Notes: generated from the sequence alone by a model not told the origin. DNA of 64,000 nt from Spirochaetota bacterium (GCA_016928815.1 JAFGJZ010000192.1:4407-68406), one strand, 5' to 3'; shown: positions 4,169-62,142, numbered from the stretch's first letter. Numbers and translations: made by a program.

Positions 4169-4410
4169 TTCATTCTCCGTCTACTGCAGTTTTTCTTTAT
4201 TATGTCACTGTTTTTACCGTCTGTCAATATAAAATAACAGTTACGGTAGCCTGGATTACTGCTTCATTGCAATGCCGGGTTATATAATATACGAATTATC
4301 AGGCATATATGCATAAATAGAAATTGAGTATTCAGAAAAGGTTTATGAAAATTAATTTATAATATGAAATTATACTTGACATTGCTTTAATTCAGAGGAA
4401 TCATATAATT

Positions 4411-4611
4411 ATGAATATAAATTTTAATGCATTTGATAATCATAATTTCGTACTGCAGGTTCAGGATAATGAAGGTCTGACTCACAGACTTCAGAATATT
4501 GCAGGTTCAAAGTGGCATCCTGACTGCGGAATGTGGTCATTTCCGGACACACCGGAAATAATCAATGAAGTGCTTTCGATTGTTTATGAGAATTCAAAAG
4601 ATGCACATTGA
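4411..4611 (+). CDS. Hypothetical small protein (66 aa)
   Basis: ORF with AGAGGAA RBS ~10 nt upstream; no recognisable domain; sits at edge of repeat-delimited island. Confidence 0.3.
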   Translation: MNINFNAFDNHNFVLQVQDNEGLTHRLQNIAGSKWHPDCGMWSFPDTPEIINEVLSIVYENSKDAH

Positions 4612-4931
4612 CCGTTATTTTCATGCCGGATCATTTAGAAAAAAACGTAACCTCCAGGCATAAAATCTGGCGGATGCAGTTTCACACGAAAAAAGCTTCA
4701 AAACAATAATGAATAATTATGAATTCATGGCTTGTTTGATTTCTTATCTCCCGGTTAAACATAAGAAAGCTTCTCTAAACACATGAAACGGAAGAGGGCT
4801 GTTTTGTCTCGCGCGGACTTGCGGGTGGGCCTCCTTAAAAACGGTTTTTTGCATGTAAAAGTTTTTGAGCCGGTAACGATTCGGATATTCTATATGTCAA
4901 TTTAGTGTTTATAAAAATTTCCGCCGCGCGC

Positions 4932-5061
4932 AAATTTTAATTGACCTGCGCCATCAGACATGATTATGAAATAGTTGCATTTAATCACACAATATGTGAT
5001 CTTATTTCTTTGAGTGGGTTTGTCGCGGGTAAGGATTTGCCGGAGGAAATTCCTGGATGTT
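4932..5061 (+). repeat. ~130-bp intergenic repeat, copy 1 (contains TTGACC-18nt-TATGAA promoter-like element and conserved 3' end TTGCCGGAGGAAATTCCT)
   Basis: Near-identical to 6274..6403 (~90% identity by eye) and more diverged copy at 8775..8896; lies 55 bp upstream of ankyrin gene. Confidence 0.8.
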
Positions 5062-5115
5062 AGAAAATGATTCATGTAATCTGTAATAAAATGATGAGTA
5101 AACGGAGATATTATC

Positions 5116-6237
5116 ATGAAACAAGATAAAGAATTAGTATCTATACTTTGTTCAGGAAATGAGGATGATTTGGATCTTTTTCTTTCTTTATCTGAAACAT
5201 TACCAGATACTGTTATAGATGAGCATAACTGCGGATGGAGTCCTCTTGAATTTGCAGCACAACTAACTGCCAATGATAACAATCGCATTCCCCTATTGAA
5301 AAAGCTTGTCAACGTTTTGGATGAAAAAGCGCAGGCATATGCACTTATTCGTGCAGCATCAGAAGAGAATACCCTTAAGCAAGTTATAGTCCTTCTTGAA
5401 GCAGGGGTTGCACCAGATGTGCGTGGAAAAGAGGGAGAAACTGCTTTAATGAGGGCTGTCGGCAACAATAACCCTAAAGTAACTTATGCACTTCTTATCC
5501 ATGGTGCTGATCCAAAAGCACAACGAAATGATGGTAGCAGTGTATCTATATCTACTGATGGATTTAGGGATAGTCTGGTTACTCTTCTTATAAAAAGTGC
5601 GATGAGTGAAAATTTGAAATCACCCAGAGAGCTTATGATTGATGAAGAGATTATTCATTGTTTTCGTTGCTGGCTGGGTGGTCTTACCAAACTTTCAACA
5701 GATCTCAAAAGTCAGCGTCTTTACTGCCTTGCCATTGACGGAAGATATCTGAAAGCAAATACAGAGGAATCTTTTAGCAAAACGTTATTAGAGTATAGAT
5801 TAAGGGAGGAAATACGGCTGCCTACAGATCTGACCCCTCAAACACTATCGCCTGAACTTAAACAGGAAGCTGAATGGGAAATGCAATTTGATGAAGAGAT
5901 AACCCTTGAAAGATGGGTAACTGAGCGTAATGAAGAGAACAGATTTATGAATGAAATGAATGATGAAAGTCATAAAGAACATGGTTATCATTATCAAAAG
6001 CCTGATGTGATTAGACATTTGCGATTCAATCCAGGAGATTTTTCATTTGTTGTCCCTTCACATACACCTTCTTCTGCTGAACTTGACTTTAAGGCATTGA
6101 AGGAAATCAGGAAGCATGATGACCGCACTGAATCCGATCTGCTTGTTGAATTGTTTATGGATAACCGATCTGTTCTTGAGACACTATTTTCGCTTACAGA
6201 TGACTTTATTGTGATCGCACCTGGACACATATATTAA
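5116..6237 (+). CDS. Ankyrin-repeat protein (cytoplasmic, unknown function)
   Basis: 373 aa; several ANK repeats (LEFAAQLTANDN..., GETALMRAVGNNNPKVTYALLIHGADPKAQ); GGAGA RBS 7 nt upstream; no signal peptide. Confidence 0.8.
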   Translation: MKQDKELVSILCSGNEDDLDLFLSLSETLPDTVIDEHNCGWSPLEFAAQLTANDNNRIPLLKKLVNVLDEKAQAYALIRAASEENTLKQVIVLLEAGVAPDVRGKEGETALMRAVGNNNPKVTYALLIHGADPKAQRNDGSSVSISTDGFRDSLVTLLIKSAMSENLKSPRELMIDEEIIHCFRCWLGGLTKLSTDLKSQRLYCLAIDGRYLKANTEESFSKTLLEYRLREEIRLPTDLTPQTLSPELKQEAEWEMQFDEEITLERWVTERNEENRFMNEMNDESHKEHGYHYQKPDVIRHLRFNPGDFSFVVPSHTPSSAELDFKALKEIRKHDDRTESDLLVELFMDNRSVLETLFSLTDDFIVIAPGHIY

Positions 6238-6273
6238 GCATTACAAAATAATAGAGGAATGAGATTAATTATT

Positions 6274-6403
6274 AAATTTTAATTGACCTACGCCATCAGA
6301 CATGATTATGAAATAGTTGCATTTAATCACGCAATATAAGATCTTATTTCTTTGAGTAGATTTGTCGCGGGTAAGGATTTGCCGCAGGAAATTCCTGGAT
6401 GTT
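6274..6403 (+). repeat. ~130-bp intergenic repeat, copy 2
   Basis: Starts 36 bp after ankyrin stop, ends 58 bp before next gene; aligns base-for-base with copy 1 with few substitutions. Confidence 0.8.
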
Positions 6404-6461
6404 AAAAAAACATTTGGACTTCAAGATTTAGTCGTGACTATATTAAGGAGAAAATTCACAA

Positions 6462-7061
6462 TTGAATAAATCTGCTGAATATTTCATAATAGATATTAAC
6501 TATTACAAAACGCCTTGTCGCCATATAGAAATGGAAAGTGTACCAAGAATAAAAGGTATACGTTGGTTAAGGGGTCAACCATTTACTATACCAGTACCTG
6601 AACCTCTTAAGTTAAATTTTTCCAGATTAAATCGTAACCACCCTGAAATGAGTGATCGCGTTCTGAATTTTATGGATGCAGCTAAATTTCCTATCTTTAG
6701 TGATAAACTTATTTCATCACTACGTTCGTTTGGTGTTGACAATTTTGAGACATACAACTTAGAAATATATGATCCTGATAGTAATAAAGTTTATTCAAAT
6801 TACAAAGCGGTAAATATTCTTGGATTATTGAAGGCTGCGGATATGGATAAATCTACCTATACAATTTCTGATGGTATTCCTTTGGTTAATGTTGAATTTG
6901 AAGAACTACATATTGATCCAAATAAAACTCATGATTTTAAGCTATTTCGTTTAGCTGAAAAACTTGGCCCAATTTTTATACATGAAAAATTAAAAAGGTA
7001 CTTAGAATCCTGTGGTTTTGATGAGATTGTTTATTATGTAACTTCAGAAGCTGCCATATGA
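6462..7061 (+). CDS. Paralog-family protein 1 (uncharacterised ~185-aa cytoplasmic family; immunity-protein-like)
   Basis: 199 aa; TTG start with strong AAGGAGA RBS. Shares GVDNF..Y...L.D....Y.NY.AVNIIG and FRL.E...L.V motifs with 7058-, 8210-, 44571- and 45287- genes. Confidence 0.7.
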   Translation: MNKSAEYFIIDINYYKTPCRHIEMESVPRIKGIRWLRGQPFTIPVPEPLKLNFSRLNRNHPEMSDRVLNFMDAAKFPIFSDKLISSLRSFGVDNFETYNLEIYDPDSNKVYSNYKAVNILGLLKAADMDKSTYTISDGIPLVNVEFEELHIDPNKTHDFKLFRLAEKLGPIFIHEKLKRYLESCGFDEIVYYVTSEAAI

Positions 7062-7609
7062 ACTATTTTTTTTGCAGACAGGATCTTTTTTCGAATATTG
7101 ATACAGCGGAAATTAGCGGCCATACTGCAGATACTGGGAAATATTTCTGGACTTCAGGTATGAAAATCCAGGAAAAAATTCCACTTCAGGTATTGGATTT
7201 AGATACAGAATATGGAACAAAATTGCCTGCGTTTTTTGATACATCTCTTCCGGTAATGTCTTCAGGTTTAATTGATGCATTTGAGAATGCAGGTGTTGAT
7301 AATTTTGATAAATACCCTGTAATTCTTAAACGATTAGACAATGGAATGGAATATGCAAATTACTTCGCTGTTAATTTTATTGGTTGCATTGATGCGTTGG
7401 ATAAGGAAAAAACTGCAATTATTAATGAGTCTTTCCGTAGATATTCACATGTAGTAATTGATGAAAAAAAAACTCAAGGATTTAAATGTTTTAGATTAAA
7501 AGATGGTCCAAGTTTATTAGTTGTCGATGAAAATGTTAAAAAAAAATTGGAAAACCATGATTTTTATTCTTTGTTATTGCAAAAATGTGAGGATTATAAC
7601 CAAATATAA
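7058..7609 (+). CDS. Paralog-family protein 2
   Basis: 183 aa; ATGA start/stop overlap with upstream paralog (translational coupling); same conserved core motifs. Confidence 0.7.
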   Translation: MNYFFCRQDLFSNIDTAEISGHTADTGKYFWTSGMKIQEKIPLQVLDLDTEYGTKLPAFFDTSLPVMSSGLIDAFENAGVDNFDKYPVILKRLDNGMEYANYFAVNFIGCIDALDKEKTAIINESFRRYSHVVIDEKKTQGFKCFRLKDGPSLLVVDENVKKKLENHDFYSLLLQKCEDYNQI

Positions 7610-7875
7610 TAATCATGAGCACCGGTGATGCAATCAGCTCAGTGCAGGGAGTAGCAGGCAACAGGATGAAAGCCGAATGCGAGTTTATGAAGTATTCTTT
7701 TGATTTTAAGTTTGAAGGGAAGAATATGTGGCGGTTGGGAGATCCGTTGTTCCATAACAAGAAGAATATTGTGGGGTGAGGGGAAGGATTTTGATTCAAT
7801 TGTTCTATCTTGGAATTTAAAAGTCTAATTTTTTGGCAAAATAATTTAACTTTAAAAAGAAAGGAAGGACTGTAT

Positions 7876-8136
7876 ATGAATAATGATGAGTTGGGTCAAT
7901 TAATAACTCGTATTAAAAAAGATGTTTTGAAAGTCGGTGATGAAATTTACGGAGCAGTAACCAAAAAAACACCAAAAAATAATCTTACCGATTTACTTTA
8001 TCGATCTCATAATTTATTAAAGGAATATGATGATTTATTATCACAATTAAAGGGCGGGAAAAAGGAATCGCTTTTAAGTTTTGAATTTGATGTTGACCAG
8101 ATACGTGAAAACCTTAAAATAATTGAAGCAAATTAA
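7876..8136 (+). CDS. Hypothetical small helical protein (86 aa)
   Basis: AAGGAAGG RBS 7 nt upstream of ATG at 7876 (ORF extends to 7810 but RBS supports 7876); no domain recognised. Confidence 0.4.
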   Translation: MNNDELGQLITRIKKDVLKVGDEIYGAVTKKTPKNNLTDLLYRSHNLLKEYDDLLSQLKGGKKESLLSFEFDVDQIRENLKIIEAN

Positions 8137-8209
8137 CTGTGTAAATGATCGTAGATGGAAAATTGGAAGAAAGCATAACAAATCTGCATAAATGATACGG
8201 GAGAATATA

Positions 8210-8776
8210 ATGCCTTACTATTTTTTGATGCGTTCGCCAGGTGGGGATTATCAGTTATGTGACACGGATATGCCTCAACAGAAGAATGGGTTAAAAGAGA
8301 ATAGATTTATCAAAGGTTCAAAGATCAAATCGGAAGAGATTATGGAGCCTATTATAATTAATTTGCGATACATAGAAGATGTTATGCCTGAATTCTTTAT
8401 GTTTCCACTTGTATTTCGAGATGACCTGCTTGCTGATATATTGGAATTCGGAATTGAAAATATTGACAGCTATAAATGTACTTTACTGGATAACATATCA
8501 GGAAAAATCTGGACAGAGTATAAAGTGTGTAATATCATCGGAATGCTTGATGTATTTGATATGAATGCCTCAAAACTATTTGTGGATTCACCACGTGATG
8601 ATGCTTATCTATTTGATGAAATTGTAATAAATGAAAGCAAAGCATTAAATCAGCATATATTTCGCCCTTATGGACGTCCGTCTGATATTCTTATATCTGA
8701 AGAATTAAAGAACTATTTAGAAACAAAAAGTAAATATATTAACATGCAATTTGTTAAGCCAAAAAATTTTGCATAA
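8210..8776 (+). CDS. Paralog-family protein 3
   Basis: GGGAGA RBS upstream of ATG at 8210 (N-terminus MPYYFLM matches family M-x-Y-F start); conserved core motifs GIENIDSY, NIIGMLD, IFRP. Confidence 0.7.
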   Translation: MPYYFLMRSPGGDYQLCDTDMPQQKNGLKENRFIKGSKIKSEEIMEPIIINLRYIEDVMPEFFMFPLVFRDDLLADILEFGIENIDSYKCTLLDNISGKIWTEYKVCNIIGMLDVFDMNASKLFVDSPRDDAYLFDEIVINESKALNQHIFRPYGRPSDILISEELKNYLETKSKYINMQFVKPKNFA

Positions 8777-8896
8777 ATTATCATTGATCTGCGCCGTCAG
8801 ACATGATTTTGGAACAGTTACATATAATCATGCAATATATGATCTTATTTCTTTTAATGGGGTCATTGCGTGTAAGTGTTTGCCGGAGGAAATTCC
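8775..8896 (+). repeat. ~125-bp intergenic repeat, copy 3 (diverged)
   Basis: Begins at stop codon of 8210..8776; retains GCGCCGTCAGACATGA and TTGCCGGAGGAAATTCCT blocks of copies 1/2. Confidence 0.7.
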
Positions 8897-9045
8897 TATT
8901 TAAAGTCTAGTGGCAAATTTCCGGCAGTTTTCCGGATAAGTATCATATTATTAATAATTATATCCTTAAATAAAATTATATTGCAATTCATCCTTCTTTT
9001 AGCAATTATGAATCCGGAATGCAGATTTATGGCGCAAATTAATAC

Positions 9046-9987
9046 ATGGAGAAATTTATGAAAAAAATAATGACTGCTTTCATTTTTTTTGTCTCGCTGT
9101 CGGCCAATTCACAGCAGCCGGCAGATTCCGTTTATTATGACAATCTGGATGTTGTTCTAGGTAAAATTAAAAATACCAAATCCTCCATTCAGCAGGAGAC
9201 TCCCGGAGTTTTTACCGTGGAATTTAATGAAAACAAAAATAACTTCAAGCTGATGCTTACCCTTTATCCCGCTGATTCAAAAAGATTCACAGTTGAAAAT
9301 CTTAAGCAGGATCTGGCTGAAAAAGGAAAAGATCTTCTTCCAATGGCGGAAGAAAAAGAGCTTGTTATCAGCGATCTGAAAAAGGGATCCGAGACGAGAG
9401 GTTTCTTTTACATTCTGACAGATAAATCGCCTGCCAAAGGTGAATTTAAATATATTGCCCAGGGTTTTACCCGGTATAATTATCTAGTTGGATACTTTAC
9501 TTTTTTTTATAACAATAAAGATGATATCAGTATTTTCAACAGTATGGATATTACCGGTTTTGTAAAAGATACCGCTGAGATGAAAAAAACCGCGCATTTT
9601 GAAAAATTTAAACTTACCAAGGATGATATTTCTGATTACAATCTTGAATATAAACAGCATTTTTACAGTATGCAGCAGGTTATATTTTATAACAATACAG
9701 ATACATATACAACCCTGCTTTCGAACGCGGATGAAAAATATACACAGACAATCTGTTCCGGAAATGAGGAAGGAACCGTATTTTTTTATTTTTTCAGGGA
9801 AAAGCTTGATTCTGAAAAAACGGCATTTCTGACAGGGCTGTTTTACGGTGAAGAAGGGAAACCGCAGAAGGATCATCCTGAAATTATTTATGTAAAGGAT
9901 AATTATCTGGTAGTGTTTTCATATCCTTATAAAAGCAGACTTCAGGAATATCTTTTTAATAAAGTAAAAGAAAAATTTGAGAAATGA
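9046..9987 (+). CDS. Secreted hypothetical protein (313 aa; likely true start ATG 9058)
   Basis: Signal peptide MKKIMTAFIFFVSLSANSQQ; GGAGA RBS before second ATG; no recognisable domain. Confidence 0.6.
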   Translation: MEKFMKKIMTAFIFFVSLSANSQQPADSVYYDNLDVVLGKIKNTKSSIQQETPGVFTVEFNENKNNFKLMLTLYPADSKRFTVENLKQDLAEKGKDLLPMAEEKELVISDLKKGSETRGFFYILTDKSPAKGEFKYIAQGFTRYNYLVGYFTFFYNNKDDISIFNSMDITGFVKDTAEMKKTAHFEKFKLTKDDISDYNLEYKQHFYSMQQVIFYNNTDTYTTLLSNADEKYTQTICSGNEEGTVFFYFFREKLDSEKTAFLTGLFYGEEGKPQKDHPEIIYVKDNYLVVFSYPYKSRLQEYLFNKVKEKFEK

Positions 9988-10108
9988 AAATGGAATCCGG
10001 ATAATTTTTTTAATCCGGAGGACTGATCCCCTGTCACGGTCTCCGGCTAACCTGATGATCTTTCAGAAATAAAAAAGGTACAAACCGGACTTCTGACAGG
10101 CTGATAAA

Positions 10109-11317
10109 ATGATTAACAGGAATTTAAAGATGAAAAAAACGGGAGTAAATGAAAACACTGCAGGTAATGTTTCAGGAAGATTGTTCTATCTTGATAATCT
10201 GAAAATATTTCTTACCATGCTTGTGATTGTTCATCATGTCGGCCAGGCATACGGCCCGACCGGCGGATTCTGGCAGTACCGCAGCAGTCTGCATGAAAGC
10301 ATTCCATGGCTTGGAAGTTTTTTCGGAGTCAATGCCGGTTTTTTTATGGGACTGTTTTTTATGATTTCCGGTTACTTTCTGCCTTCGTCCTTTGACAGGA
10401 AATCATTTTCGGAATTTCTTAAGGAAAAGCTGATCCGTTTCGGCATACCTCTCCTGTTTGTTTTTACTGTGCTGCAACCCTTTCAAATGTATTTTTATTA
10501 CGTCAATTACAGCGGTAACCGTCCCATGGATTTTCTTTCATACTATATACATATATATTTCGGAGCGGGCGGCCGGCCTGACTGGTTTGCCGATTCCATC
10601 GGTTTTCCTGAAATGAATTTCGGTCATCTCTGGTTTGTCGAACATCTTCTTGTTTATTTCATCATCTATGCCGTTGTAAAAAAATATTTTATAAAAAAGA
10701 AAACAGAAGTAGTCCCGACAAAAATTACTTTCTTTCACATTATCGGACTTGGATTGCTGATTTCAATAACATCGGTTCTGATCAGAATTTTTTATCCCAT
10801 TGACAGGTGGACCGGTATTCTTGGTTTCATTCAGTCTGAACCGGCGCACCTTCCGCAGTATCTGCTGCTGTTTATCACAGGCGTTACTGCATACAGAAAA
10901 GACTGGTTGCGGCAGATTAAAACCTCAACGGGTATGCAGCTGTTGTCTGCCGGAGTAATGATGGCGCTGGTAGTATATTTTAACGGGTTTTTGCCGAAGG
11001 CTGTGATCAATATAGTATTTGAGGGCTGGAGTATTTATGAATCATTCATGGCTGTTTTTCTCTGTTTCGGTTTAACGGTGCTTTTCAGGGAACATGCAGA
11101 AAAATCATCTATGTTTATGAAAGCTGCATCCCGGAATTCGTATGCAGCATACATTATTCATTTTCCTGTCGTTCTGACAGTACAGTTTGCGCTTGATAGA
11201 GTAAATATATGCGGAGCTTACGGTAAATTTTTTACGGTAAGTATACTGTCTGTTCTGCTTTCATATTCTCTCAGCGCTCTCATCAGGAAAAGCTCACTTA
11301 TGCGGAAAGTATTATGA
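10109..11317 (+). CDS. Acyltransferase 3 family membrane protein
   Basis: 402 aa, ~10 TM segments; N-terminal LDNLKIFLTMLVIVHHVG motif of acyltransferase-3 (OatA/OpgC-like) family. Confidence 0.75.
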   Translation: MINRNLKMKKTGVNENTAGNVSGRLFYLDNLKIFLTMLVIVHHVGQAYGPTGGFWQYRSSLHESIPWLGSFFGVNAGFFMGLFFMISGYFLPSSFDRKSFSEFLKEKLIRFGIPLLFVFTVLQPFQMYFYYVNYSGNRPMDFLSYYIHIYFGAGGRPDWFADSIGFPEMNFGHLWFVEHLLVYFIIYAVVKKYFIKKKTEVVPTKITFFHIIGLGLLISITSVLIRIFYPIDRWTGILGFIQSEPAHLPQYLLLFITGVTAYRKDWLRQIKTSTGMQLLSAGVMMALVVYFNGFLPKAVINIVFEGWSIYESFMAVFLCFGLTVLFREHAEKSSMFMKAASRNSYAAYIIHFPVVLTVQFALDRVNICGAYGKFFTVSILSVLLSYSLSALIRKSSLMRKVL

Positions 11318-11348
11318 AAAGAGAAAAAATATCTTTTAAGAGAAAACA

Positions 11349-11963
11349 ATGATTAAACTCAAACATCTGTTCATGCTGTCTCCGTACATAGGTGTAATTA
11401 CGGGGATGTATGTTTTTAAAAATGCATTTGCGGCAATTTTTATATATCATGCGGGAATTGCTGCTGCTGTTTGCCTGTTTCACGGAGAAATCTCCTTTAA
11501 CACCCTGTTTAAATTTAACAATCCCAGGCTTTTGATATTTGCATCTGCCGTATGTCTGCTGTCGGGTCTTTCAGTAGTTGTTCTATGGAACTTTATAAAA
11601 CTTCCGGGAATCAATCTGCCGGTAATCATGGAACAGTTTAAATTGTCCGGTATCAATAAATGGATATTTCTGCTGTATTTTTCCACAGTGCATCCTCTTA
11701 TTGAGGAGCTTTACTGGCGTTTTCTGGCTGATTTCCGGGGCAGATATATCTCAGTAGGAGATATCATTTTTGCCGCTTACCATATTCCTGTTCTGATATT
11801 TTTTCTAAATGCTTCATTTGTTCTGCTATGTTTCGCGGTTCTGGTCGCGGCAGCCCGTATCTGGAGATATCTTAAACAGGATTTAAATGAGAATCTTACA
11901 GTTTTTATTTCACATGCTTTTGCCGATTTCAGCATCATGCTTGCGGTATTTGCACTGTATTGA
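11349..11963 (+). CDS. CPBP family intramembrane metalloprotease (CAAX protease-like)
   Basis: 204 aa membrane protein with EELYWR (EExxxR), FAAYH and SHAF motifs characteristic of Abi/CPBP. Confidence 0.75.
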   Translation: MIKLKHLFMLSPYIGVITGMYVFKNAFAAIFIYHAGIAAAVCLFHGEISFNTLFKFNNPRLLIFASAVCLLSGLSVVVLWNFIKLPGINLPVIMEQFKLSGINKWIFLLYFSTVHPLIEELYWRFLADFRGRYISVGDIIFAAYHIPVLIFFLNASFVLLCFAVLVAAARIWRYLKQDLNENLTVFISHAFADFSIMLAVFALY

Positions 11964-12079
11964 ATCCTCCCTGAATTGTGCTCTGTTCAGGAAAGCCGTA
12001 AAAGGAATTAAATATTAGTTGACTATCCGGAAATTTCCGTTATATCATATGCCGGAACTAAAATTGCTAATTTTTTATT

Positions 12080-12766
12080 ATGGAGAATCTAATGAAAAAA
12101 TTTATAATCTTTTTTCTTCTGCTGACAGGTTTTATATCAGCAAATGCTGTTTCGCAGGAAATGAATACAGCGGATGCAGAAAAGAAAGACATTGGTTTTG
12201 ATTACGGAAGTATAGATAGTAATATTTATAAAAATTCATTTTTCAGTCTGACTGCTTCAATACCGGAGAAATGGTTTGTGCAGTCCAAAGAAACAACACA
12301 GATGCTGATTGAAAAAGGCAAGGATATTGTTGCCGGTGATGATGAAAACATGAAAGCGGTTATCAGAGCATCTGATGTTAATACAGCCTATCTGCTTACC
12401 GTTTTTCAGAATGAACTCGGAACCCCGGTAGAGTATAATGCCTCTTTCATGATAATGGCGGAAAATCTGAAGCTGTATCCAGGAATAAAAACGGGAAAGG
12501 ATTATCTTTTTTCTGCAAGAAGACTTATGAATCAGTCCCAGATTAAGTATGATCATCTTGATGAAGATTTCGAAAAAAGATCAATCGGAGGAAAGGAATT
12601 CTATTTGATGAATGCGTTGATCAAATATGCCGGACTTGATATCAAGCAGACATATTACTGCACAACGTTAAACGGATTTGCCCTGAATGTAATTATCAGT
12701 TATGTTACTGATGAACAGAAAGCTATTCTTGATAAATTTGTCAGTTCAATCAGATTTAATAAATGA
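12080..12766 (+). CDS. Secreted hypothetical protein
   Basis: Signal peptide MKKFIIFFLLLTGFISANA (likely start ATG 12092); no domain recognised. Confidence 0.5.
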   Translation: MENLMKKFIIFFLLLTGFISANAVSQEMNTADAEKKDIGFDYGSIDSNIYKNSFFSLTASIPEKWFVQSKETTQMLIEKGKDIVAGDDENMKAVIRASDVNTAYLLTVFQNELGTPVEYNASFMIMAENLKLYPGIKTGKDYLFSARRLMNQSQIKYDHLDEDFEKRSIGGKEFYLMNALIKYAGLDIKQTYYCTTLNGFALNVIISYVTDEQKAILDKFVSSIRFNK

Positions 12767-12788
12767 TATTTTAAGAAATCATAACCTT

Positions 12789-12819
12789 GAATGTGCCGGT
12801 TTTTGGGCACATTCTTTTC
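12789..12819. terminator. Bidirectional rho-independent terminator hairpin
   Basis: GAATGTGCC-ggtttttgg-GGCACATTC followed by TTTTC; lies between convergent genes 12080..12766 and 12818..13153. Confidence 0.6.
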
Positions 12820-13607: not shown

Positions 13608-14648
13608 TTATTTAAGCTGATGCTGTTTTTTTGCAGCTGCAGTACTGTTTCTGGCAATAAAATTAGTTGGAATCATAACCTTTTTCGGCCAGGTCCGGTT
13701 TTTTGCAAACCGTTCGTTAAACAGAGTTAATGCACACTCGGCGATGTAGTCAAAGTGCACATGAACTGATGACAGAGCCGGCATAAGATATTTTATTGCA
13801 GGAAGATTGTTAAATCCGATCAGACTTACATCTTCCGGTACCCGGATATTTTCTTCCAATAGAGCCCGTAATGCTCCTGTTGCTACTGTGTCGTTCAGTG
13901 TCATGATTGCAGTCGGCAGTTTTTTACCGGATATGGCCTGCTTGATGGTTTTGTAGCCTTCTTCAGCGCAGTTTTTATAGTATACTGTGTCGAAAAAATA
14001 TGCACTGTCATACAGGCAGTACTCGTGAAGCGCTTTTGAAAGAATCTGCTTGCGTGGATCCTGAATTCTTTTTTTCCCGGAAATTATATCCGGTTTGCCG
14101 ATAAATCCGATTTTGGTATGACCCAGATTGACCAGATGATCCAGTGCTTCATTCAGCCCCAGTTCAAAATTAAGTACAACAGAATCATATTCCTTTTCCA
14201 TCGGTGAGGAATTGATAAATATAATATTACTTGAAAGCTCTGAAAGCTGTTTTACTTCCTCCGGGGCTACCGTTTCAATGGCAAATACTCCATCAAGTGA
14301 AAACGGGGCTGTGTTCTTGTAACCGGTTTCATTTTTGGAAATACGGAAAATTGTAATTTCTTCTTCAGCCGCCTTTTTCTCAATCATATCTCTCAGATAT
14401 AAATAATAGGGGTCATCTATTATTTTATCGTTATTATACCATTCGGCGATGCCGATACATGGCTTGGATCTGTCTGTAATAATCTTTCTGCGGTCACGGA
14501 TGGGGATGTACTCCAGTTCTTCTACTGCCTGCAGGACTTTCAGTTTCGTTTCCGGAGATACTGAAAGAGTTTCGTCGTAATTTAGAATACGTGATACAAC
14601 TCCGGGAGATACTGCTGCTTTCGCTGCTATGTCTTTTATTGTCGCCAT
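13608..14648 (-). CDS. LacI family transcriptional regulator
   Basis: N-terminal HTH MATIKDIAAKAAVSPGVVSRILN plus periplasmic-binding-protein-like sugar-binding core; divergent from ABC sugar locus. Confidence 0.85.
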   Translation of the reverse strand: MATIKDIAAKAAVSPGVVSRILNYDETLSVSPETKLKVLQAVEELEYIPIRDRRKIITDRSKPCIGIAEWYNNDKIIDDPYYLYLRDMIEKKAAEEEITIFRISKNETGYKNTAPFSLDGVFAIETVAPEEVKQLSELSSNIIFINSSPMEKEYDSVVLNFELGLNEALDHLVNLGHTKIGFIGKPDIISGKKRIQDPRKQILSKALHEYCLYDSAYFFDTVYYKNCAEEGYKTIKQAISGKKLPTAIMTLNDTVATGALRALLEENIRVPEDVSLIGFNNLPAIKYLMPALSSVHVHFDYIAECALTLFNERFAKNRTWPKKVMIPTNFIARNSTAAAKKQHQLK

Positions 14649-40950: not shown

Positions 40951-41826
40951 TTGGAGATGGAATGGATGAAGAACAAGGATATCGTTTATTCGGCTCTTGA
41001 ACTGATAGAAGAAAATTTAAAAAGCGACATTGACGTCTGTTCCGTCTCCCAGAAATTCGGATTTTCGCTTTACTATTTCAGCCGTCTTTTTAAAGGAATC
41101 ACCGGATATACTTTAAAAGATTACATCCTGCTGAGAAAAATCAGCGAATCATATAATGATCTGATTAAAACCGACAAAAAAATTATTGATATCGCATTTG
41201 AATACGGGTTTGGTACGCATGAATCCTACAGCAGGGCGTTTAACCGTATTATAGGATTGAATCCTTCCCGGGCAAGAAGGCAGGAACGGTTTTCTCCTGA
41301 GAATCTGATTTCTCCATTATCCGGGAATATTATCGAAAATAGGAGAAGAAAAACGCTTTTAGAACCTGAAAAGGTAGAGCTTGAAGAAATACAATTGATT
41401 GGCATTCCTTTTTACTTTGATCTGGCTTTGCAGAATGATTTAAGCAAACCCTGGGCTAATCTCAGTGCGAATGCATTTCTCATAGAGAACAGGCTGATTC
41501 CTGAAAAATATTACCAGCTTCAATACTGGTTTGCTGATCAGGAGCCGGATCTGTTTTATTTTTTCATAGCGGTTCAGGTTGAAAAGATAGAAAACATTCC
41601 GCTTCAATTTACAGCAAAAATTATTCCGAAACAGAAATATCTGAAGTTTCTCCATAAAGGAAGATCAAATACCGTCGGTTTAACCTATCAGTATATTTAT
41701 AACACATATCTGCCGGAGACTGATTTCCGTTTGCCGTATTTATATAATTTTGAACTATACGGTAATACCTTTCTCGGACCCTGCAATGATGACTCTGTCA
41801 GTGAAATTTACATTCCTTATGAGTGA
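40951..41826 (+). CDS. AraC-family transcriptional regulator with GyrI-like effector-binding domain
   Basis: N-terminal AraC HTH pair (VSQKFGFSLYYFSRLFK...IAFEYGFGTHESYSRAF) + C-terminal ~160-aa GyrI-like domain. Confidence 0.8.
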   Translation: MEMEWMKNKDIVYSALELIEENLKSDIDVCSVSQKFGFSLYYFSRLFKGITGYTLKDYILLRKISESYNDLIKTDKKIIDIAFEYGFGTHESYSRAFNRIIGLNPSRARRQERFSPENLISPLSGNIIENRRRKTLLEPEKVELEEIQLIGIPFYFDLALQNDLSKPWANLSANAFLIENRLIPEKYYQLQYWFADQEPDLFYFFIAVQVEKIENIPLQFTAKIIPKQKYLKFLHKGRSNTVGLTYQYIYNTYLPETDFRLPYLYNFELYGNTFLGPCNDDSVSEIYIPYE

Positions 41827-42799: not shown

Positions 42800-43276
42800 A
42801 TGACTGGAAATTTAAAACTTGATAAAATCCTTTGGCAAGCGGCAGATAAAATTCACAAAAATATGGATGCGGCTGAATATATGCATGTTGTATTAGGTTT
42901 AATATTCCTGAAATATATACCAGATGCTTTTGGAGACTTATATCAAAAATTGGAAACTGCAAAACAGGAAACCGGTGCAGACCCGGAAGACAAAGATGAA
43001 TACACGGCGGAACGGGTTTTGTATGGTCCACAACAGGTTTGCTGGAAATGGCTGCAAGGCAGAGCCAATCTGTCAACTATCGGCAAAGGCATTCGTTCCT
43101 TAAAAGGGGTATTGCCTAAAGATTATGCCCGTCCTTCACCCGACAAACAAAGGTTTGACGTACTGATTAATCGTAAGCAAAAGTTTACAGCAATGCTTTC
43201 CGAACAAATGCAAAAAGCGAATGAACTGGATGATTCAATAAAAAAGAACTTGGCGAAAACCGGCTATGAAATCTGA
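42800..43276 (+). pseudogene. hsdM: Type I restriction-modification HsdM remnant (N-terminal domain fused to C-terminal tail; methyltransferase core deleted)
   Basis: [34 protein letters not shown] and [12 protein letters not shown]...DKQR match the HsdM N-domain. The ORF ends after only 158 aa with a coiled-coil-like tail ([17 protein letters not shown]). The catalytic N6-MTase domain is absent. Confidence 0.6.
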
Positions 43277-44195
43277 CAGTAAAATATCCATACGCTTTTT
43301 TGACGACCGTGAGGTTCGGGCACTCTGGGATGAAGAAAAGTCCAAATGGTGGTTTTCCGTATTGGACATAGTGGCAGTGCTTCGGGACCAGAGTGATTAT
43401 AATAAAAACCGCAACTACTGGAAATACCTTAAAGCAAAACTGAAGCAGGAAAACAGGCAGTTGGTTAGCGCCACTACCCAACTGAAACTCACCGCTGCAG
43501 ATGGTAAAAAATACAAATCCGATATGCTCGATTACGAAGGTATTATTGCTTTGGGTAAAGAATTTCCAAGTAAAAAAGCCAACCGTTTTATTGAATGGTT
43601 TACCTATAGTGATGAGACTATTGATGGTAAAAGCAAAACCAAAGCCTATGCATTTTTTGAAAGTTCATTTATTGACAGTATAGAAGTGGGTACTACAAGA
43701 GGATTGCAGCAGATACACGCCTATTTGTTTGGAGGACTCTATGACTTTGCAGGGCAAATCCGGCAGAAGAATATATCTAAAGGGGGATTTCGTTTTGCCA
43801 TGGTACAACACCTTGAGCAGACCCTGCAACAGATTGACCAAATGCCTGAAACCACTTTTCAGGAAATAACTGATAAATATGTGGAGATGAACATCGCCCA
43901 CCCTTTTATGGAAGGTAATGGCAGAAGCACACGAATTTGGCTCGATATGATACTGAAAAAACGGTTGAAGCGCTGTGTGGACTGGAGCCGTATTAGTAAA
44001 AACGACTACATGGACGCCATGGTACAAAGCCCGGTGAATAGCACACCGCTAAAAACTCTTATTAAAAATGCCCTGACAGACGAAATAGACAGCCGGGAAA
44101 TGTATATGAAGGGCATTGATTATTCTTATTATTATGAAGAGAGTCAGAATCATGATTCGGTTGAGTTTCCTGATAATCAGGGTGCAGATGTATGA
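43266..44195 (+). CDS. Fic-family protein with N-terminal Bro-N/RhuM-like DNA-binding domain
   Basis: Fic motif [14 protein letters not shown]; N-terminal [29 protein letters not shown]; start overlaps hsdM-remnant stop. Confidence 0.85.
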
Positions 44196-44245
44196 GCGAT
44201 TGGGAAACATATATGTTGGGGGATTTAATAACTCCCGTTCGTTAA
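44192..44245 (+). pseudogene. hsdS: hsdS 5' stub (17 codons) overlapping fic stop
   Basis: [17 protein letters not shown] resembles conserved HsdS N-terminus (W-x-x-x-LGD); ATGA overlap with fic as in intact hsdM-x-hsdS operons. Confidence 0.4.
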
Positions 44246-44570
44246 GTGACATATAAAAACTGCAGTATGGAAATTTCATGAGCTGGAATATATTCTTTTC
44301 ATCATATGCTCAAGTTTCCGCGGCAATTGTTGGGATAATCTCTGGTCTGTCTAAAAGCTTTGATGAGTAAATAATTTTAGGGTGCTTTTTATTGCAGGAT
44401 AAATTTTTGATGAGTTTTATCAGGCGCTATCCGGATTTTTTGAAATTATAGTTGATTTTTTTTGGTGAGTTTGCAGTATTATTGCTGTAGTAGGAATTAT
44501 AGTTTTTACAATAAATTGTAACCTCAAAATATGCAAATCGAAATTAATACTCAACTTTAAGGAAATATTT

Positions 44571-45122
44571 ATGGAATATTTTATAATGGATGAAGTTGCA
44601 GGTAATCCTTATATTCCTTACATTGGTGATCTGCCAGAAGAGTTAGATATGATAGATGTAGCTATCGGAAAAAAAGTTGATATCAACGATGTCCCAATTC
44701 AATTACCTGTAAGCATTGGAGACGTATCAGAAGTTGAATACCCTGACTTATTAACTGGAAATGTCCCATTGTTTTCTGAGAAACTGAAGTTCGCTTTAGA
44801 TGAAACTGGAATTGATAATATCGATTATTTTCAAGTTGATCTTATCAACGAAGAAGATGGGAAAACTGTTGCTAAATATTATCTTGGAATTGTTATTGGA
44901 TTGATAAAATGTCTAAAAAGTGGTTTAACGTCAAGCCCTGCGGGCAGAGACATTTTAAAGAACCCGGTAATAGATTTTTCCCTTGTTCGCGGTCAAAAAC
45001 TTTTTCGACTTGCGGAATCGCCATTATTAATTATTGTTGATTCGAGCGTAAAAGATGCTCTTTCAAAGATTAATCTTCAAGGTGTCTCACTGCTTCGATT
45101 GAAGGATTATGAAAGTTTTTAG
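44571..45122 (+). CDS. Paralog-family protein 4
   Basis: 183 aa; MEYFIMDE start, GIDNIDYF, IVIGLI, KLFRLAES, SVKDAL motifs shared with 6462/7058/8210 genes. Confidence 0.7.
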   Translation: MEYFIMDEVAGNPYIPYIGDLPEELDMIDVAIGKKVDINDVPIQLPVSIGDVSEVEYPDLLTGNVPLFSEKLKFALDETGIDNIDYFQVDLINEEDGKTVAKYYLGIVIGLIKCLKSGLTSSPAGRDILKNPVIDFSLVRGQKLFRLAESPLLIIVDSSVKDALSKINLQGVSLLRLKDYESF

Positions 45123-45286
45123 GATTCGAAAACATTTTTTGACATCCAAACATTTTATGTTCAATCTTTCAAAAACATGAACTTTAATAATAGATCCGGG
45201 AATTCATTTCCCAACCCATTAGCAAAAGAAGGAAAACAGCACGTTAAATTTGTTTATATTCTTTGCAATTTTATTGGAGATTTTTT

Positions 45287-45835
45287 ATGTACTGGGTCAT
45301 AGAAGCAGATTTACAGGTTAAAGGTTTAGCATCTATCATGGACTTACCGGATGACATTGAAGGCATGGAATGGATGTGTGGTAAAGAAATGCCTGATCGA
45401 AAACAACCAATATCACTTAATTTAAACCGTGGAAGCGGTTCTTTTCGCGGTGATATAATGGGTGGAATTTTACCATTATACTCAGATGACCTTAGAGATC
45501 TGTTTAATGAATATGGCATAAATAATATACAATATTTTCCTGTGGATATAACTGATACAATTCTGAATGAAGTTGAATATGGTTATTCATTGGTAAATAT
45601 AATAGGGTTAATTTCCTGCGTAAAAAATTATGATTTTAATTTATCTCCGCTTGCACGTCCTTCAAGTCTTGAAAAATTTTCAATTGATCCAGCCAAGACT
45701 TTTAATCTTCCAATTTTTCGTCTTTTTGAATCTCGTCGTTTAATAGTAATAAATGACGACTTGCGGAATTATTTATCTGATAAAGGACTTGCGGGTGTAA
45801 GAATAACAAAGACTGAAGAATATACTGTCTGGTAA
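45287..45835 (+). CDS. Paralog-family protein 5
   Basis: ORF extends to 45263 but family alignment supports the MYWVIEAD start (45287); GINNIQYF, NIIGLI, IFRLFESRRLIVIND motifs. Confidence 0.7.
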   Translation: MYWVIEADLQVKGLASIMDLPDDIEGMEWMCGKEMPDRKQPISLNLNRGSGSFRGDIMGGILPLYSDDLRDLFNEYGINNIQYFPVDITDTILNEVEYGYSLVNIIGLISCVKNYDFNLSPLARPSSLEKFSIDPAKTFNLPIFRLFESRRLIVINDDLRNYLSDKGLAGVRITKTEEYTVW

Positions 45836-46011
45836 AGAATAGAAATATTCCTCAAAATTATTTGCAATTGGATACACTTCAATTGCTGCCCTAACAAATC
45901 TGTTATGCAGAAAACAGCAGATTGAGGACAAAGTGAAAAATTCAAACTGTATCTTTCGTATGGAATTAAACAATACGCTTAACATTGCTTTTTACGAAAC
46001 CAGGCTGTTTG

Positions 46012-47133
46012 TTATTTATCTGCCATTGCGAGGGATCTGATCACTTTCAGATATTCGCCATTCCTGTCACCTTTGGTCGGGGCGATCCAGGCTCCTTCTC
46101 CGTATTCGTTCCAGGCACAGATTAATATTACATGTTCATCCGGCGTCTGTTCGGGATGTGTTTTAATCCAGCTTACTGCTTTTTCCAGAAACTGCCGGAA
46201 TAAAGCAGGCGTTCTTCCTGTGTAATACCAGCCTTCCCTTTTATTAAAAAGCCCGTTTGGTCCTTCCCACGGTCTTTTATCAAACCCGGCTGTCACCACC
46301 GGAATATACGGCTGCTCGCTGCTGCCCCGCCATTCATTTTCAGCTGCGGTAATCAGTTCCGCATAAGAATGTTTTTCGGCACCGTCTTCATATCCGTAAG
46401 ATATCATATAATGAGTTCTGTATTGATACCCCTGTTCAGGAGTTCCATACCAGTTGCAGGCAATTGCAAGTCCGGGGAGACCGGCATCACGGGCTGCTTT
46501 CTGCATTCTGTCAAAACCGGCCTTGTCACCTCCGGCACCGTTGAATATGATAACAAGCGGTTTGCCGTTGATTTTCAGATACTGCTCGTGAGTCAGGTAC
46601 GGCATCAGATATTGTGCTGCAGCTTCCCAGTTTTCCGGTCCTGTAATTTCAAACCAGTCATGATTTGCTATCATCAGACAGAACTGCATTCTTTTGCTGT
46701 TTCCGGATTTTAAAAACAGATCCAGCCCCGTATTTTTCGGATCATCACGTATTGCATTTTCATTAATACTGCTTTTATTATCATGCCAGAACCAGCAGAA
46801 TGAAAAAAATGCCAGACCGTTATCGGCAGCGGTATCTATCTGCTGTTCCATTATCTCCAGACTGTCATCCCTCCAGCCCCATACCGGTTCGCGTTCCGGA
46901 AATTCTTCAAGCATTCTCCGTGTAAGATGCAGCGGAGCGTTTTCTGCCCAGGGCTGATCAGGATCGCCTGAAAGATTGTTTTTTCCAGCCCAGCCGTCAA
47001 AATAATATGCACCAATACACAGATCAGGGTTTCTTACCTTTTCGCTGTTTTTCCGTATTCTTCCGCTACAAAACATAATGCCGGCTAACATAACCGCTGC
47101 AAAGATGATTAGGTATTTCATGATATACTCCAC
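46012..47133 (-). CDS. Secreted glycoside hydrolase family 99-like / WbsX-like protein
   Basis: Signal peptide; C-terminal ICAWNEYGEGAWIAP resembles NEW-EG motif of WbsX/GH99-like domain; low certainty. Confidence 0.45.
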   Translation of the reverse strand: MEYIMKYLIIFAAVMLAGIMFCSGRIRKNSEKVRNPDLCIGAYYFDGWAGKNNLSGDPDQPWAENAPLHLTRRMLEEFPEREPVWGWRDDSLEIMEQQIDTAADNGLAFFSFCWFWHDNKSSINENAIRDDPKNTGLDLFLKSGNSKRMQFCLMIANHDWFEITGPENWEAAAQYLMPYLTHEQYLKINGKPLVIIFNGAGGDKAGFDRMQKAARDAGLPGLAIACNWYGTPEQGYQYRTHYMISYGYEDGAEKHSYAELITAAENEWRGSSEQPYIPVVTAGFDKRPWEGPNGLFNKREGWYYTGRTPALFRQFLEKAVSWIKTHPEQTPDEHVILICAWNEYGEGAWIAPTKGDRNGEYLKVIRSLAMADK

Positions 47134-47402
47134 AGAAACAGCATTTTTTATCAGACATGCCGGAAGTTATTTACGGCTGATATCTGTCATAATGATGAGA
47201 GTAATTCATTGTCAGTTATAGATTTCATAATGCAATAATTATGATATTCTTCTGTTATATTTTATGCAATATTGAAAAACAGGTCAAGATAATTATACGA
47301 TGTATATGCTGATGCTTTTTTAACATTTAGGAACCGGGTTCGCTCGTTGTTTAAATACAAATAAAATCCGCAATTAATTTCATGATTTTAAAGAACTGAT
47401 AA

Positions 47403-48128
47403 TTAATTCTGTTTGATTATTTCGCCAAGCGGACTGACAGCTTCATATAAATCATCAGCTGTAATAATGATTTTTTTTGATATTCTGAAATCTCCTTTTT
47501 TAAGTGCACTCGCAATCCATGTGTTGCATGTATTGAACAAATGATAACTGTAGACGGATTTGTAGAAAACCGTATTTCCGGAACCGTTTGATGAAAGTTT
47601 AATGAACATGCCTGAATTGTCATGTTTGAATGATCCGTTTATGAAACTGCATATTCTGTCAAACTGAGCGGACGACGCGGTAAAGCGAATGGAGTATATG
47701 CAGTATTTTGTGATGCTGTCTACTGACATGTCCGTACCGTGAACTCTGACAGTGCTTGAAGACGGAACGAAAAGAGCCTTTAGAGTGAGATATATCCCGC
47801 CTGTACCGGCCTGATAATAGTCGGCATCACCCCAACCGAAATCTGCATAAGCAAATTGACGGAATTCTGAAAGAACACTAATTTTTCTGATTGTTTCATC
47901 TGTAATTCTGATGACGATACCGGTATGCAGGCCGTTGTTGACGACATAGAAAGTACCGGCCTGTATGTCATCAGTATTTACATCTGCAGTTGATGAAACA
48001 GCAGAGAATATAAATAAACTCAGAAGAACGGCATATTTCAGCAGAAAACTTTTTTTTGACATAAGAAATATTAACACACGTATAAATAAAAAGCATATAA
48101 AAATTAAAAAAATAATATTTATTTTCAT
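47403..48128 (-). CDS. DUF2459-like membrane/secreted protein
   Basis: N-terminal hydrophobic segments; HTGIVI...FAYADFGWGDADYYQ core reminiscent of DUF2459/TIGR02117 family; from recollection. Confidence 0.4.
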   Translation of the reverse strand: MKINIIFLIFICFLFIRVLIFLMSKKSFLLKYAVLLSLFIFSAVSSTADVNTDDIQAGTFYVVNNGLHTGIVIRITDETIRKISVLSEFRQFAYADFGWGDADYYQAGTGGIYLTLKALFVPSSSTVRVHGTDMSVDSITKYCIYSIRFTASSAQFDRICSFINGSFKHDNSGMFIKLSSNGSGNTVFYKSVYSYHLFNTCNTWIASALKKGDFRISKKIIITADDLYEAVSPLGEIIKQN

Positions 48129-48301
48129 TACAAAAAGATGAATCAGGCATGGTGAAATAAATCCGCATTAGAAATAAATTTTAATTGATTTATAATTAAT
48201 ACAGTGATAGATTGTCTTAAGTAAAGCAATTTTACATGCAGCATTCATTTTTAAATTCATACATTAGTTAGTATTCGTAAAATTCAGTCCGGAGGCATCA
48301 T

Positions 48302-55693: not shown

Positions 55694-55785
55694 GGTGTAA
55701 CCATCCTGAATTATAATATTATTAGGCGTCGTTGTTCCGACCGTCTATGCATGAAATATGTCATGAATTCCGGTTTAAATCGGTC

Positions 55786-55834
55786 GGATTTATAATTCCG
55801 GATATAATTTCAGGATTGGATTTATAATTCCGGA
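55786..55834. promoter_or_regulatory. Tandem array of TATAATTCCGGA-type motif (3 copies, ~16-bp spacing)
   Basis: GGATTTATAATTCCGGA / TATAATTTCAGGATT / GGATTTATAATTCCGGA; a matching array occurs at 62092..62142. Confidence 0.55.
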
Positions 55835-61956: not shown

Positions 61957-62091
61957 AAGCTATGTCTCCAGTAATAAAATTGCCGCTTTTTTTATCAGGC
62001 GTTCAGTTTAATCAACGAACGGTTATAATTTCCGTTAACCGATCATTTTTGATTACTGATAATATTGCATAGCTTAATGAAAAAATCGGTT

Positions 62092-62142
62092 GAAATTATA
62101 ATTCCGGATAAATATAATAGGCTGGAATTATAATTCAGGATT
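62092..62142. promoter_or_regulatory. Second array of TATAATTCCGGA-type motif
   Basis: GAAATTATAATTCCGGA ...GGAATTATAATTCAGGATT; same orientation as 55786..55834; ends 9 bp before ATG 62151. Confidence 0.55.

Follow-up and report, generated by a model that had tools for sequence, protein, structure and literature searches.

A repeat-delimited array of orphan-immunity-type genes behind a putative recombinase N-terminal module in a Spirochaetota genome

Results

Three direct repeats mark unit boundaries in a gene island

The window analysed in this work is a 64,000-nt stretch of an uncultured Spirochaetota bacterium metagenome-assembled genome (MAG; GCA_016928815.1, JAFGJZ010000192.1:4407-68406), in which three direct, non-coding repeats of ~130 nt are spaced through an island of co-oriented genes. 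The repeats, confirmed at 4932-5072, 6274-6414 (93% identical to copy 1) and 8775-8915 (75%), were delimited by repeat search, alignment and profile as plus-strand features at 4932-5068 (copy 1), 6274-6410 (copy 2) and 8775-8897 (copy 3), the last being the most diverged, with similarity stopping right after GGAAATTCCT. In the alignment, a core of 126 nt is common to all copies, extending from AAATT(T/A)T(A/C)ATTGA(C/T)C to TTTGCCG(G/C)AGGAAATTCCT. Its last bases are ..GGAAATTCCT, with copy 3 departing immediately after ..TTCCT, and copies 1 and 2 matching for a further ~11 bases, through GGATGTTA(G/A)AAA. The 5' ends of the copies read AAATTTTAAT/AAATTATCAT.

Core identity is 94% between copies 1 and 2, 81% between copies 1 and 3, and 79% between copies 2 and 3, bearing out an original prediction, made from the sequence alone, of three real copies with two near-identical and the third more diverged. 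The same prediction described a conserved 3' block, and this block, TTGCCGGAGGAAATTCCT, occurs unchanged in copies 1 and 3 and with a single mismatch in copy 2. Searched with a profile of all three copies, the 64-kb window returned each of them with E-values of 1e-43 to 1e-49, and no fourth copy; hence the repeats are local, and their similarity is far beyond chance. Of the seven core differences between copies 1 and 2, copy 3 sides with copy 1 in five and with copy 2 in the other two. The divergence of copy 3 is distributed along the whole element, without codon-position bias. Contigs of a Logan assembly from the same sample (SRR13394437) break inside copies 1 and 2, one corresponding to window positions 4959-6320 (L093) and another, identical to the window, beginning at 6301 (L001), as assemblers do at repeats. 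The island's proteins have records from no source other than the MAG (locus tags JW982_16770-16800) and this Logan assembly.

Each copy has the orientation of the genes and is separated by 45-160 nt from a start codon on its 3' side, which has a ribosome-binding site of its own. Copy 2 begins 36 nt 3' of the stop codon of an ankyrin-repeat gene and copy 3 overlaps the stop codon of an Imm11-family gene, as expected from the proposal that each copy begins 0-36 bp after a stop. This does not extend to copy 1, which is 321 nt past the stop codon of a 66-amino acid (aa) open reading frame (ORF) and adjoins no stop codon. Every gap of more than 100 nt in the island (three in total) holds a repeat copy, and the four short junctions hold none; hence the repeat marks the boundaries between gene units. 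Copies 1 and 2 finish in a ribosome-binding-site-like GGAGG-N10-ATG. At 5041-5090 and 6383-6433, mini-ORFs of 9-10 codons follow the GGAGG (MLENDSCNL and MLKKHLDFKI, each closed by a stop codon), and copy 3 has no ATG at this place; these mini-ORFs may be relics of an ancestral gene start.

The island carries immunity-type genes and no intact toxin

Seven co-oriented plus-strand ORFs lie between 5116 and 9987. Behind copy 1, a gene at 5116-6237 encodes a 373-aa protein with ankyrin repeats (Pfam Ank_2 and related families) and an unassigned C-terminal part, making it a candidate Imm-Ank type immunity protein. Behind copy 2, the Imm11 paralogues a (MBN1501816.1; 6462-7061; PF07791, E 6.5e-9) and b (7058-7609; PF07791, E 5.6e-11) are followed by a 54-aa fragment (7615-7779; PF13665, E 6e-12) corresponding to the C-terminal half of a Tox-PAAR-like domain (profile positions 55-108 of 108), by a small helical ORF of no assigned family (7810-8136; 108 aa from a TTG start, or 86 aa from the ATG at 7877), and by Imm11 paralogue c (8192-8776; PF07791, E 6.9e-7), whose stop codon overlaps the first bases of copy 3. 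The final unit, behind copy 3, is a single gene (9058-9987) for a 309-aa protein with a predicted signal peptide, low guanine and cytosine (GC) content and no assigned family, for which an AlphaFold2 model reached a predicted local distance difference test score of 38. Hence the units are the ankyrin gene; three Imm11 genes, a PAAR-like fragment and an 86/108-aa ORF; and the gene for the secreted protein. The suggestion that the repeats partition a co-oriented, low-GC toxin/immunity island into gene units is therefore upheld by the three Imm11 genes and the PAAR-like fragment. The middle unit, described originally as three paralogues and one small gene, does contain paralogues, here identified as Imm11, but holds two small features rather than one.

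The three Imm11 proteins are mutually only 28-30% identical. The PAAR-like fragment abuts the stop codon of Imm11b and shares the frame of the next small ORF, with two stop codons between them, which marks it as a decayed toxin gene. Imm11b is an orphan in this island. At another locus (L089, 337-1618; Logan SRR8925804), a 242-aa AHH-motif toxin is directly followed by an Imm11 gene with 75% nucleotide identity to Imm11b, the homology being confined to the ORF. Judged from this gene order, the pair is likely to be the cognate toxin-immunity pair for one orphan gene of the window. When used as a query, this AHH toxin left no trace in the window, in which neither an AHH toxin nor any other intact toxin was detected.

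GC content is 0.30-0.33 over 6250-9000 and 0.30-0.41 across the island overall, against 0.40-0.45 in the flanks. These flanks contain housekeeping genes, with DUF1295, PlsY and FakA/DegV to the left and an acyltransferase to the right. The combination of three Imm11 genes, an ankyrin protein and a toxin fragment without an intact toxin, in a low-GC block between housekeeping flanks, points to an orphan immunity array.

A recombinase N-terminal module stands at the head of the island

The 66-aa ORF upstream of copy 1 (MBN1501814.1, JW982_16770; 4411-4611, plus strand) is co-oriented with the array, and homology searches identified it as a HARP-like/double-wing N-terminal module of an XerA/integron-integrase-like tyrosine recombinase. 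In an exhaustive HMMER search it had 16 matches, and those with assigned domains, other than giant PKD/Big_9 proteins, were tyrosine recombinases. These giant surface proteins (P0152-P0154) were among the top library matches, through many weak stretches, and probably share a W-x-F-x-D-type motif rather than homology. The recombinases P0158 (539 aa) and P0165 (789 aa) have Phage_int_SAM_4 and Phage_integrase domains preceded by three or four copies of the module, with the signature I-x-G-x-x-W-H-P-D-x-K-x-W-S-x-P-D-T-P-E-N, a stretch that takes the form IAGSKWHPDCGMWSFPDTPE in the window ORF. Its closest homologue, P0160 (40% identity over 60 aa; tblastn E 4e-11), represents the beginning of a recombinase gene, the frame of which continues on the P0160 contig (L096) past a poly-A frameshift through the SAM-like and catalytic domains to HSLRHSFA.

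Bacteroidota full-length relatives and P0158 scored at or just above the 220-bit cut-off of NCBIfam NF040815 (‘site-specific tyrosine recombinase/integron integrase’), with P0165 and the truncated L096 gene below it, and on the integron-integrase model TIGR02249 all of them stayed below the cut-off of 265, full-length relatives scoring 113-219 bits in two pieces. Searches of Pfam, NCBIfam and PDB sequences with the 66-aa ORF itself returned nothing significant. Structure modelling confidently gives its protein a double-wing-like fold of beta-beta-alpha-beta-beta-alpha order, resembling the DNA-binding domain of T4 MotA. The contigs carrying P0158, P0165 and the L096 gene are too short to show arrays, and the viral collection contained no relatives.

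Strong sigma-70-like promoter candidates (TTGACA-17-AATCAT and TTGCTT-16-TATAAT), the best match of a promoter scan in this region, lie at 4376-4409 on the plus strand, just 5' of the 66-aa ORF, and by position are a possible promoter of the array. Between them and 9987, the promoter/terminator scan called no terminator-like site on the plus strand. Beyond the stop codon of the 66-aa ORF, similarity to recombinases continues faintly for only ~8 codons, and the stretch where the SAM-like and catalytic domains would be expected (4612-4931) is a non-coding spacer with stop codons in all frames. Two stretches considered as recombinase remnants, GWASLKTV and NIRKLL, were at chance level and were rejected. 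No integrase domain was found in the scanned window ORFs of at least 150 aa, nor a Phage_integrase domain anywhere in the window. Thus the original statement that no integrase is present holds for the catalytic domain, but overlooked the N-terminal module just upstream of copy 1. Either the gene has lost at least 500 nt of its body, or the 66-aa ORF is a stand-alone module, and in neither case can the locus encode recombinase activity.

Another Logan contig from the same sample (L091) ends at ~4528, inside the 66-aa ORF and not at a repeat. This break may represent a second copy or a strain variant of the module in the community, such as an intact recombinase.

Related recombinases are followed by repeats at two other loci

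In a tblastn search of plasmids with P0158, Bacteroidota genes annotated as ‘site-specific tyrosine recombinase/integron integrase’ ranked top. On a plasmid of Chryseobacterium sp. SNU WT5 (NZ_CP041688.1; L098), an intact 347-aa recombinase opens with one copy of the module (...IKLISGARWSQQKKLWHIPDTRENR; profile E 9e-15). Three 209-nt direct repeats, 82 nt, 2.2 kb and 4.6 kb past its stop codon, split the co-oriented genes that follow into units, each repeat ending 6-35 nt 5' of the first gene of its unit. Within this array region (6929-12790) the repeats, at 8054-8262, 10149-10357 and 12530-12738, are near-identical, GC-rich and about 190-209 nt long. The arrangement of a recombinase with the N-terminal module, followed by co-oriented units each headed by one of three long direct repeats, is that of the window. 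The two differ in that the Chryseobacterium recombinase is intact; in that its repeats are strong hairpins, unlike those of the window; and in that the cargo consists of Crp, RidA and a phosphoesterase instead of immunity genes, accompanied by a group II intron and insertion sequence (IS) elements including IS110. This array looks like an undescribed integron-like platform, and we know of no description of it as a system.

A second recombinase of the same family, on plasmid pFA5 of Fulvitalea axinellae (NZ_AP025319.1; L102), has two 80-nt repeats, of broadly similar type, on its 3' side (9825-9904 and 14564-14643), which are 78% identical, contain internal inverted repeats, end in CGTTGT and are attC-like in appearance. 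No long repeats were found at three other recombinase loci; hence the association between recombinase and repeats is not universal.

The repeats are conserved in sequence and not in structure

attC sites of integrons act as imperfect single-strand hairpins, in which R''-L'' pairs with L'-R', with core sites RYYYAAC at the 5' end and GTTRRRY at the 3' end. Folded as single-stranded DNA, both strands of all three copies gave -8.4 to -13.4 kcal/mol (z +0.8 to -0.9), no better than shuffled sequences, whereas the Chryseobacterium repeat, folded as a control, gave -38 to -44 kcal/mol (z -5.9 to -7.0). The copies contain no consistent R''-L''/L'-R' pairing or long-range inverted repeat, and the only palindrome seen is the 11-bp AGGAAATTCCT. 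Copies 1 and 2 approximate GTTRRRY with GTTAGAA and GTTAAAA, and copy 3 has no GTT there. The originally suggested likeness to Vibrio cholerae repeat (VCR)-type attC sites, or to clusters of attC sites lacking integron integrases (CALINs), thus fails on the fold of either strand and on the missing R' site of copy 3.

RNA folding gave z-scores of -1.5 to +0.6, and the covariation term was about 0 (+0.57/-0.99), with one compensatory pair per strand and the little power that three sequences provide. Rfam had no match in the repeats, its sole match being one chance-level snoRNA outside them. Consequently the secondary structure that might have been conserved among the copies is evident on neither strand. 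The sigma-70-like TTGACC-18-TATGAA, originally attributed to each copy, is present in copies 1 and 2, and replaced in copy 3 by TTGATC-18-TTTGGA. The promoter scanner did not call TTGACC-18-TATGAA, to which a sigma-70 weight matrix gives ~6 bits; more than 20 sites score higher within the same 5 kb. Moreover, the ‘spacer’ TCAGACATGATT between the hexamers is invariant, while both hexamers degrade in copy 3. A second candidate, CAGACA-19-T(T/A)TAAT, is conserved but long-spaced; CAGACA occurs in all copies, and copy 3 has CAGACA-19-TATAAT. The weak hexamers, and the lack of a fold, covariation or Rfam signal, do not favour the shared sigma-70 promoter or structured leader RNA that had been put forward.

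The repeat family is restricted to this locus in the collections searched

The searches of GTDB, JGI/ENA and IMG/VR were exact-pattern scans seeded on three short conserved blocks, which diverged relatives without these blocks would escape. Within that scope, no relative of the repeat was found in GTDB representative genomes (7 chance matches), in JGI/ENA metagenome contigs (none in one scan, 49 chance matches in the other) or in IMG/VR. Neither did blastn find a relative in plasmids and phages, and the nhmmer repeat profile yielded nothing new in the window and 100 fetched loci. Homologues of Imm11b and Imm11c at two other loci (L089 and L090) are not accompanied by a repeat copy. Hence the repeat is a property of the locus and, in contrast to attC, is not carried along with the genes. 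Nor do the copies resemble miniature inverted-repeat transposable elements or repetitive extragenic palindromes, having no terminal inverted repeat and lying all within 4 kb, with none in the other 60 kb of the window. The words AAATTTCCG flanking the repeats at 4915 and 8915 were considered as att-like direct repeats and rejected, as CCGGAAATTT-like words are common in the window (38 against 10 expected).

Other immunity-type genes and repeats in the window

A second immunity-type neighbourhood extends over 42800-49351, and contains an HsdM N-terminal fragment (42800-43276), a Fic/Bro-N protein (43266-44195) and a SUFU-domain protein (48302-49351). Its two Imm11-type genes (44571-45122 and 45263-45835) are 27-32% identical to the other Imm11s, and it has neither a repeat copy nor a recombinase module. 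Elsewhere, a 58-nt direct repeat (55777-55834 and 62083-62140), internally made up of a doubled GGATTTATAATTCCGGA motif, occupies two intergenic regions, one beside an AraC-family regulator gene (55906-57045, minus strand), and may be an operator or promoter motif. A further AraC-type regulator at 40951-41826 has a GyrI-like/Cass2 effector-binding domain; Pfam calls Cass2 ‘integron-associated’, but the gene is unrelated to the repeat island.

Discussion

With arrays of orphan immunity genes, bacteria can withstand the toxins that neighbouring cells deliver. The repeats described here are tentatively explained as fossil junction or leader modules of a small, decayed array of recombinase-associated orphan immunity genes, or polyimmunity genes, similar to rAID (recombinase-associated acquired interbacterial defence) systems; we give this reading a probability of roughly 0.45. 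The same module stands before three unrelated gene sets, which excludes the tandem duplication of a gene together with its flank. Furthermore, the recombinase remnant at the head of the island, the parallel with the Chryseobacterium plasmid, and the placement of the repeats at unit boundaries together suggest junction modules in an array built by recombination. Recombination scars of a toxin/immunity swapping system were among the original suggestions, and come closest to this explanation, with a recombinase remnant at the island head and a layout that may reasonably be called cassette-like.

The array would, on this account, be one co-oriented, low-GC block, opening with a promoter and the surviving N-terminal module of a recombinase whose catalytic part was deleted, followed by three gene units, each headed by one ~130-nt non-coding module. 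This module could be the reused 5' end of one ancestral gene, because copies 1 and 2 end with GGAGG-N10-ATG and a few codons, after which similarity stops. We infer that the resident 5' module was copied each time a gene block recombined in behind it, the agent being either the recombinase, with double-stranded sites as its substrate, or homologous exchange among the copies. Loss of the recombinase would then have frozen the array, leaving the oldest copy to drift; the 19-21% divergence of copy 3 fits such an older junction. The copies may still act as leader sequences.

Several observations weigh against this scheme. There are just three copies, in one MAG, without relatives in the collections searched, and their conservation is inseparable from recent common descent. 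No sister genome was available in which cassettes might have been gained or lost, the closest homologue of the flanking DUF1295 gene being 65% identical, with synteny on the far side only. No catalytic remnant of a recombinase was detected in 4560-5115, where the best tblastn score with recombinase bodies, 13.5 bits, fell below the mean of shuffled sequence (17 bits). The 66-aa ORF is itself unbroken and has a good promoter; it could encode a small DNA-binding protein in its own right, placed here by coincidence. At both related recombinase loci that have repeats, these are strong hairpins, and those of the window are not; if this recombinase family needs folded sites, the window repeats are not its sites. 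Finally, no core-type inverted-repeat site of the 11-6-11 form was recognised in the repeat.

The main rival explanation, itself unlikely, gives each copy a cis-regulatory function, as a shared promoter, operator or 5' leader by which one immunity transcription unit is driven or co-regulated, the copies having spread by ordinary duplication. The co-orientation of the copies, 5' of starts with their own ribosome-binding sites, suits such a role, as do TTGACC-18-TATGAA in copies 1 and 2 and the CAGACA shared by all copies, paired at 19 nt with TATAAT in copy 3. Binding may occur at the AGGAAATTCCT palindrome or at a TGATT-N15-17-AATCA dyad, conceivably by the 66-aa protein, given its modelled resemblance to the DNA-binding domain of MotA. 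However, the sigma-70 match is mediocre and its hexamers worsen in copy 3 around a perfectly conserved spacer; RNA folding is on a par with that of shuffles, covariation is near 0 and Rfam has no match. There are also five Imm11-type genes in the window, yet the second locus at 44.5-45.8 kb has no copy. It is doubtful, too, that the repeats are neutral local scars of homologous or illegitimate recombination, with neither a present function nor a tie to the recombinase-module ORF. The restriction to three copies without known relatives, the even spread of divergence in copy 3, and the absence of structure or a strong motif would all be expected of scars, but 126-137 nt placed before three unrelated gene sets excludes simple tandem duplication, and the position behind a recombinase-module ORF mirrors both the Chryseobacterium array and the definition of rAIDs.

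Two further explanations are far less probable. That the repeats are VCR-like attC sites of a CALIN array, served by an integrase encoded elsewhere, is close to refuted: the layout is cassette-like, two copies end in approximations of GTTRRRY, and the nearest typed relatives of the module do score on the integron-integrase model, but below its cut-off, and set against these are z-scores far from those of the control hairpin, the absence of R''-L''/L'-R' pairing and of the GTT in copy 3, conservation of sequence instead of structure, relatives of the cassette genes that lack the element, and no IntI in the window. Nearly excluded is a coding remnant, a gene fragment copied with each unit, for instance from the C-terminus of a toxin or from within the recombinase. 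Copies 1 and 3 have an open plus frame 0 of 40-43 codons, all three copies have an open minus frame 0 across the core, and the plus-strand peptide CAIRHDYEIV...KDLPEEIP aligns weakly to the SAM-like domain and linker of P0158 and P0165 (E 2 in a 950-nt search space, not significant). Yet in neither frame are substitutions (5/9/7 and 7/9/5 by codon position) in excess at the third position, an in-frame stop codon interrupts copy 2, and Pfam finds no recombinase or toxin family for the repeat peptides.

A more ambitious version of the junction-module reading is improbable. It would make the locus a spirochaete counterpart of the integron and rAID principle, in which an XerA/IntI-branch recombinase with a HARP-like module stacked immunity genes behind ~130-bp, non-hairpin, double-stranded sites; the enzyme would since have been lost, and the module retained as a small DNA-binding protein that still recognises the repeats (the AGGAAATTCCT palindrome being one possible target) and controls the frozen array.

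To our knowledge, the assembly of orphan immunity arrays is unresolved even for the well-studied rAID systems of gut Bacteroidales. In the locus described here, a recombinase remnant, a long repeat, and Imm11 and ankyrin immunity genes occur jointly in another phylum. As it stands the case is weak, being one MAG with three copies and a dead enzyme, and what it offers is a lead to a recombinase family recognisable by an N-terminal ‘IxGxxWxxxxxxWxxPxT’ module.

Among known systems, the locus shares with integrons and CALINs its co-oriented, promoterless-looking units, the repeated element between them, and an Xer/IntI-branch recombinase at one end. It differs from them in having no attC hairpin, an element conserved in sequence, no IntI-specific features, and cassette homologues without the element; it is not an integron. 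Imm11 and ankyrin repeats (Imm-Ank) are immunity partners of Tox-AHH nucleases, and occur in polyimmunity loci, often adjoining XerC/D recombinases, with extended loci reported only in Proteobacteria, Bacteroidetes, Firmicutes and Actinobacteria (Zhang et al. 2012, PMC3482391). The tandem, co-oriented, distant Imm11 paralogues and ankyrin protein of the window, without an intact toxin, answer to the definition of a polyimmunity locus; in contrast to the window, no long repeated non-coding modules are described for such loci (Zhang et al. 2012, PMC3482391).

Another close system is rAID-1 of Bacteroidales, in which a 5' tyrosine recombinase is followed by co-oriented, short, low-GC orphan immunity genes, sometimes with toxin fragments, and conserved intergenic motifs, the repetitive sequences between genes being described as ‘reminiscent of integrons’; it is defined by an XerD-like recombinase >44% identical to BF9343_RS08045, with at least two co-directional downstream genes of GC content <=41% (Ross et al. 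2019, bioRxiv 10.1101/471110; PMC12247911). Compared through this published description, the locus is similar in its seven co-oriented ORFs with GC content of 0.30-0.41 and its orphan immunity genes and toxin fragment. The recombinase module at its 5' end, and the repeat at all three gaps of more than 100 nt but at none of the four short junctions, may be counterparts of the rAID recombinase and motifs. It is different in that the host is a spirochaete and not a member of the Bacteroidales, only the N-terminal module of the recombinase is left, the array is tiny (~7 genes), and the 126-137-nt repeat occupies three large gaps instead of separating every ORF. Hence, with a host outside the Bacteroidales and a recombinase that is not intact, the locus is not filed as rAID-1. 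The locus and the Chryseobacterium plasmid together suggest that recombinase-built, repeat-delimited arrays are more widespread, and their site types more varied, than is represented by integrons and rAID-1.

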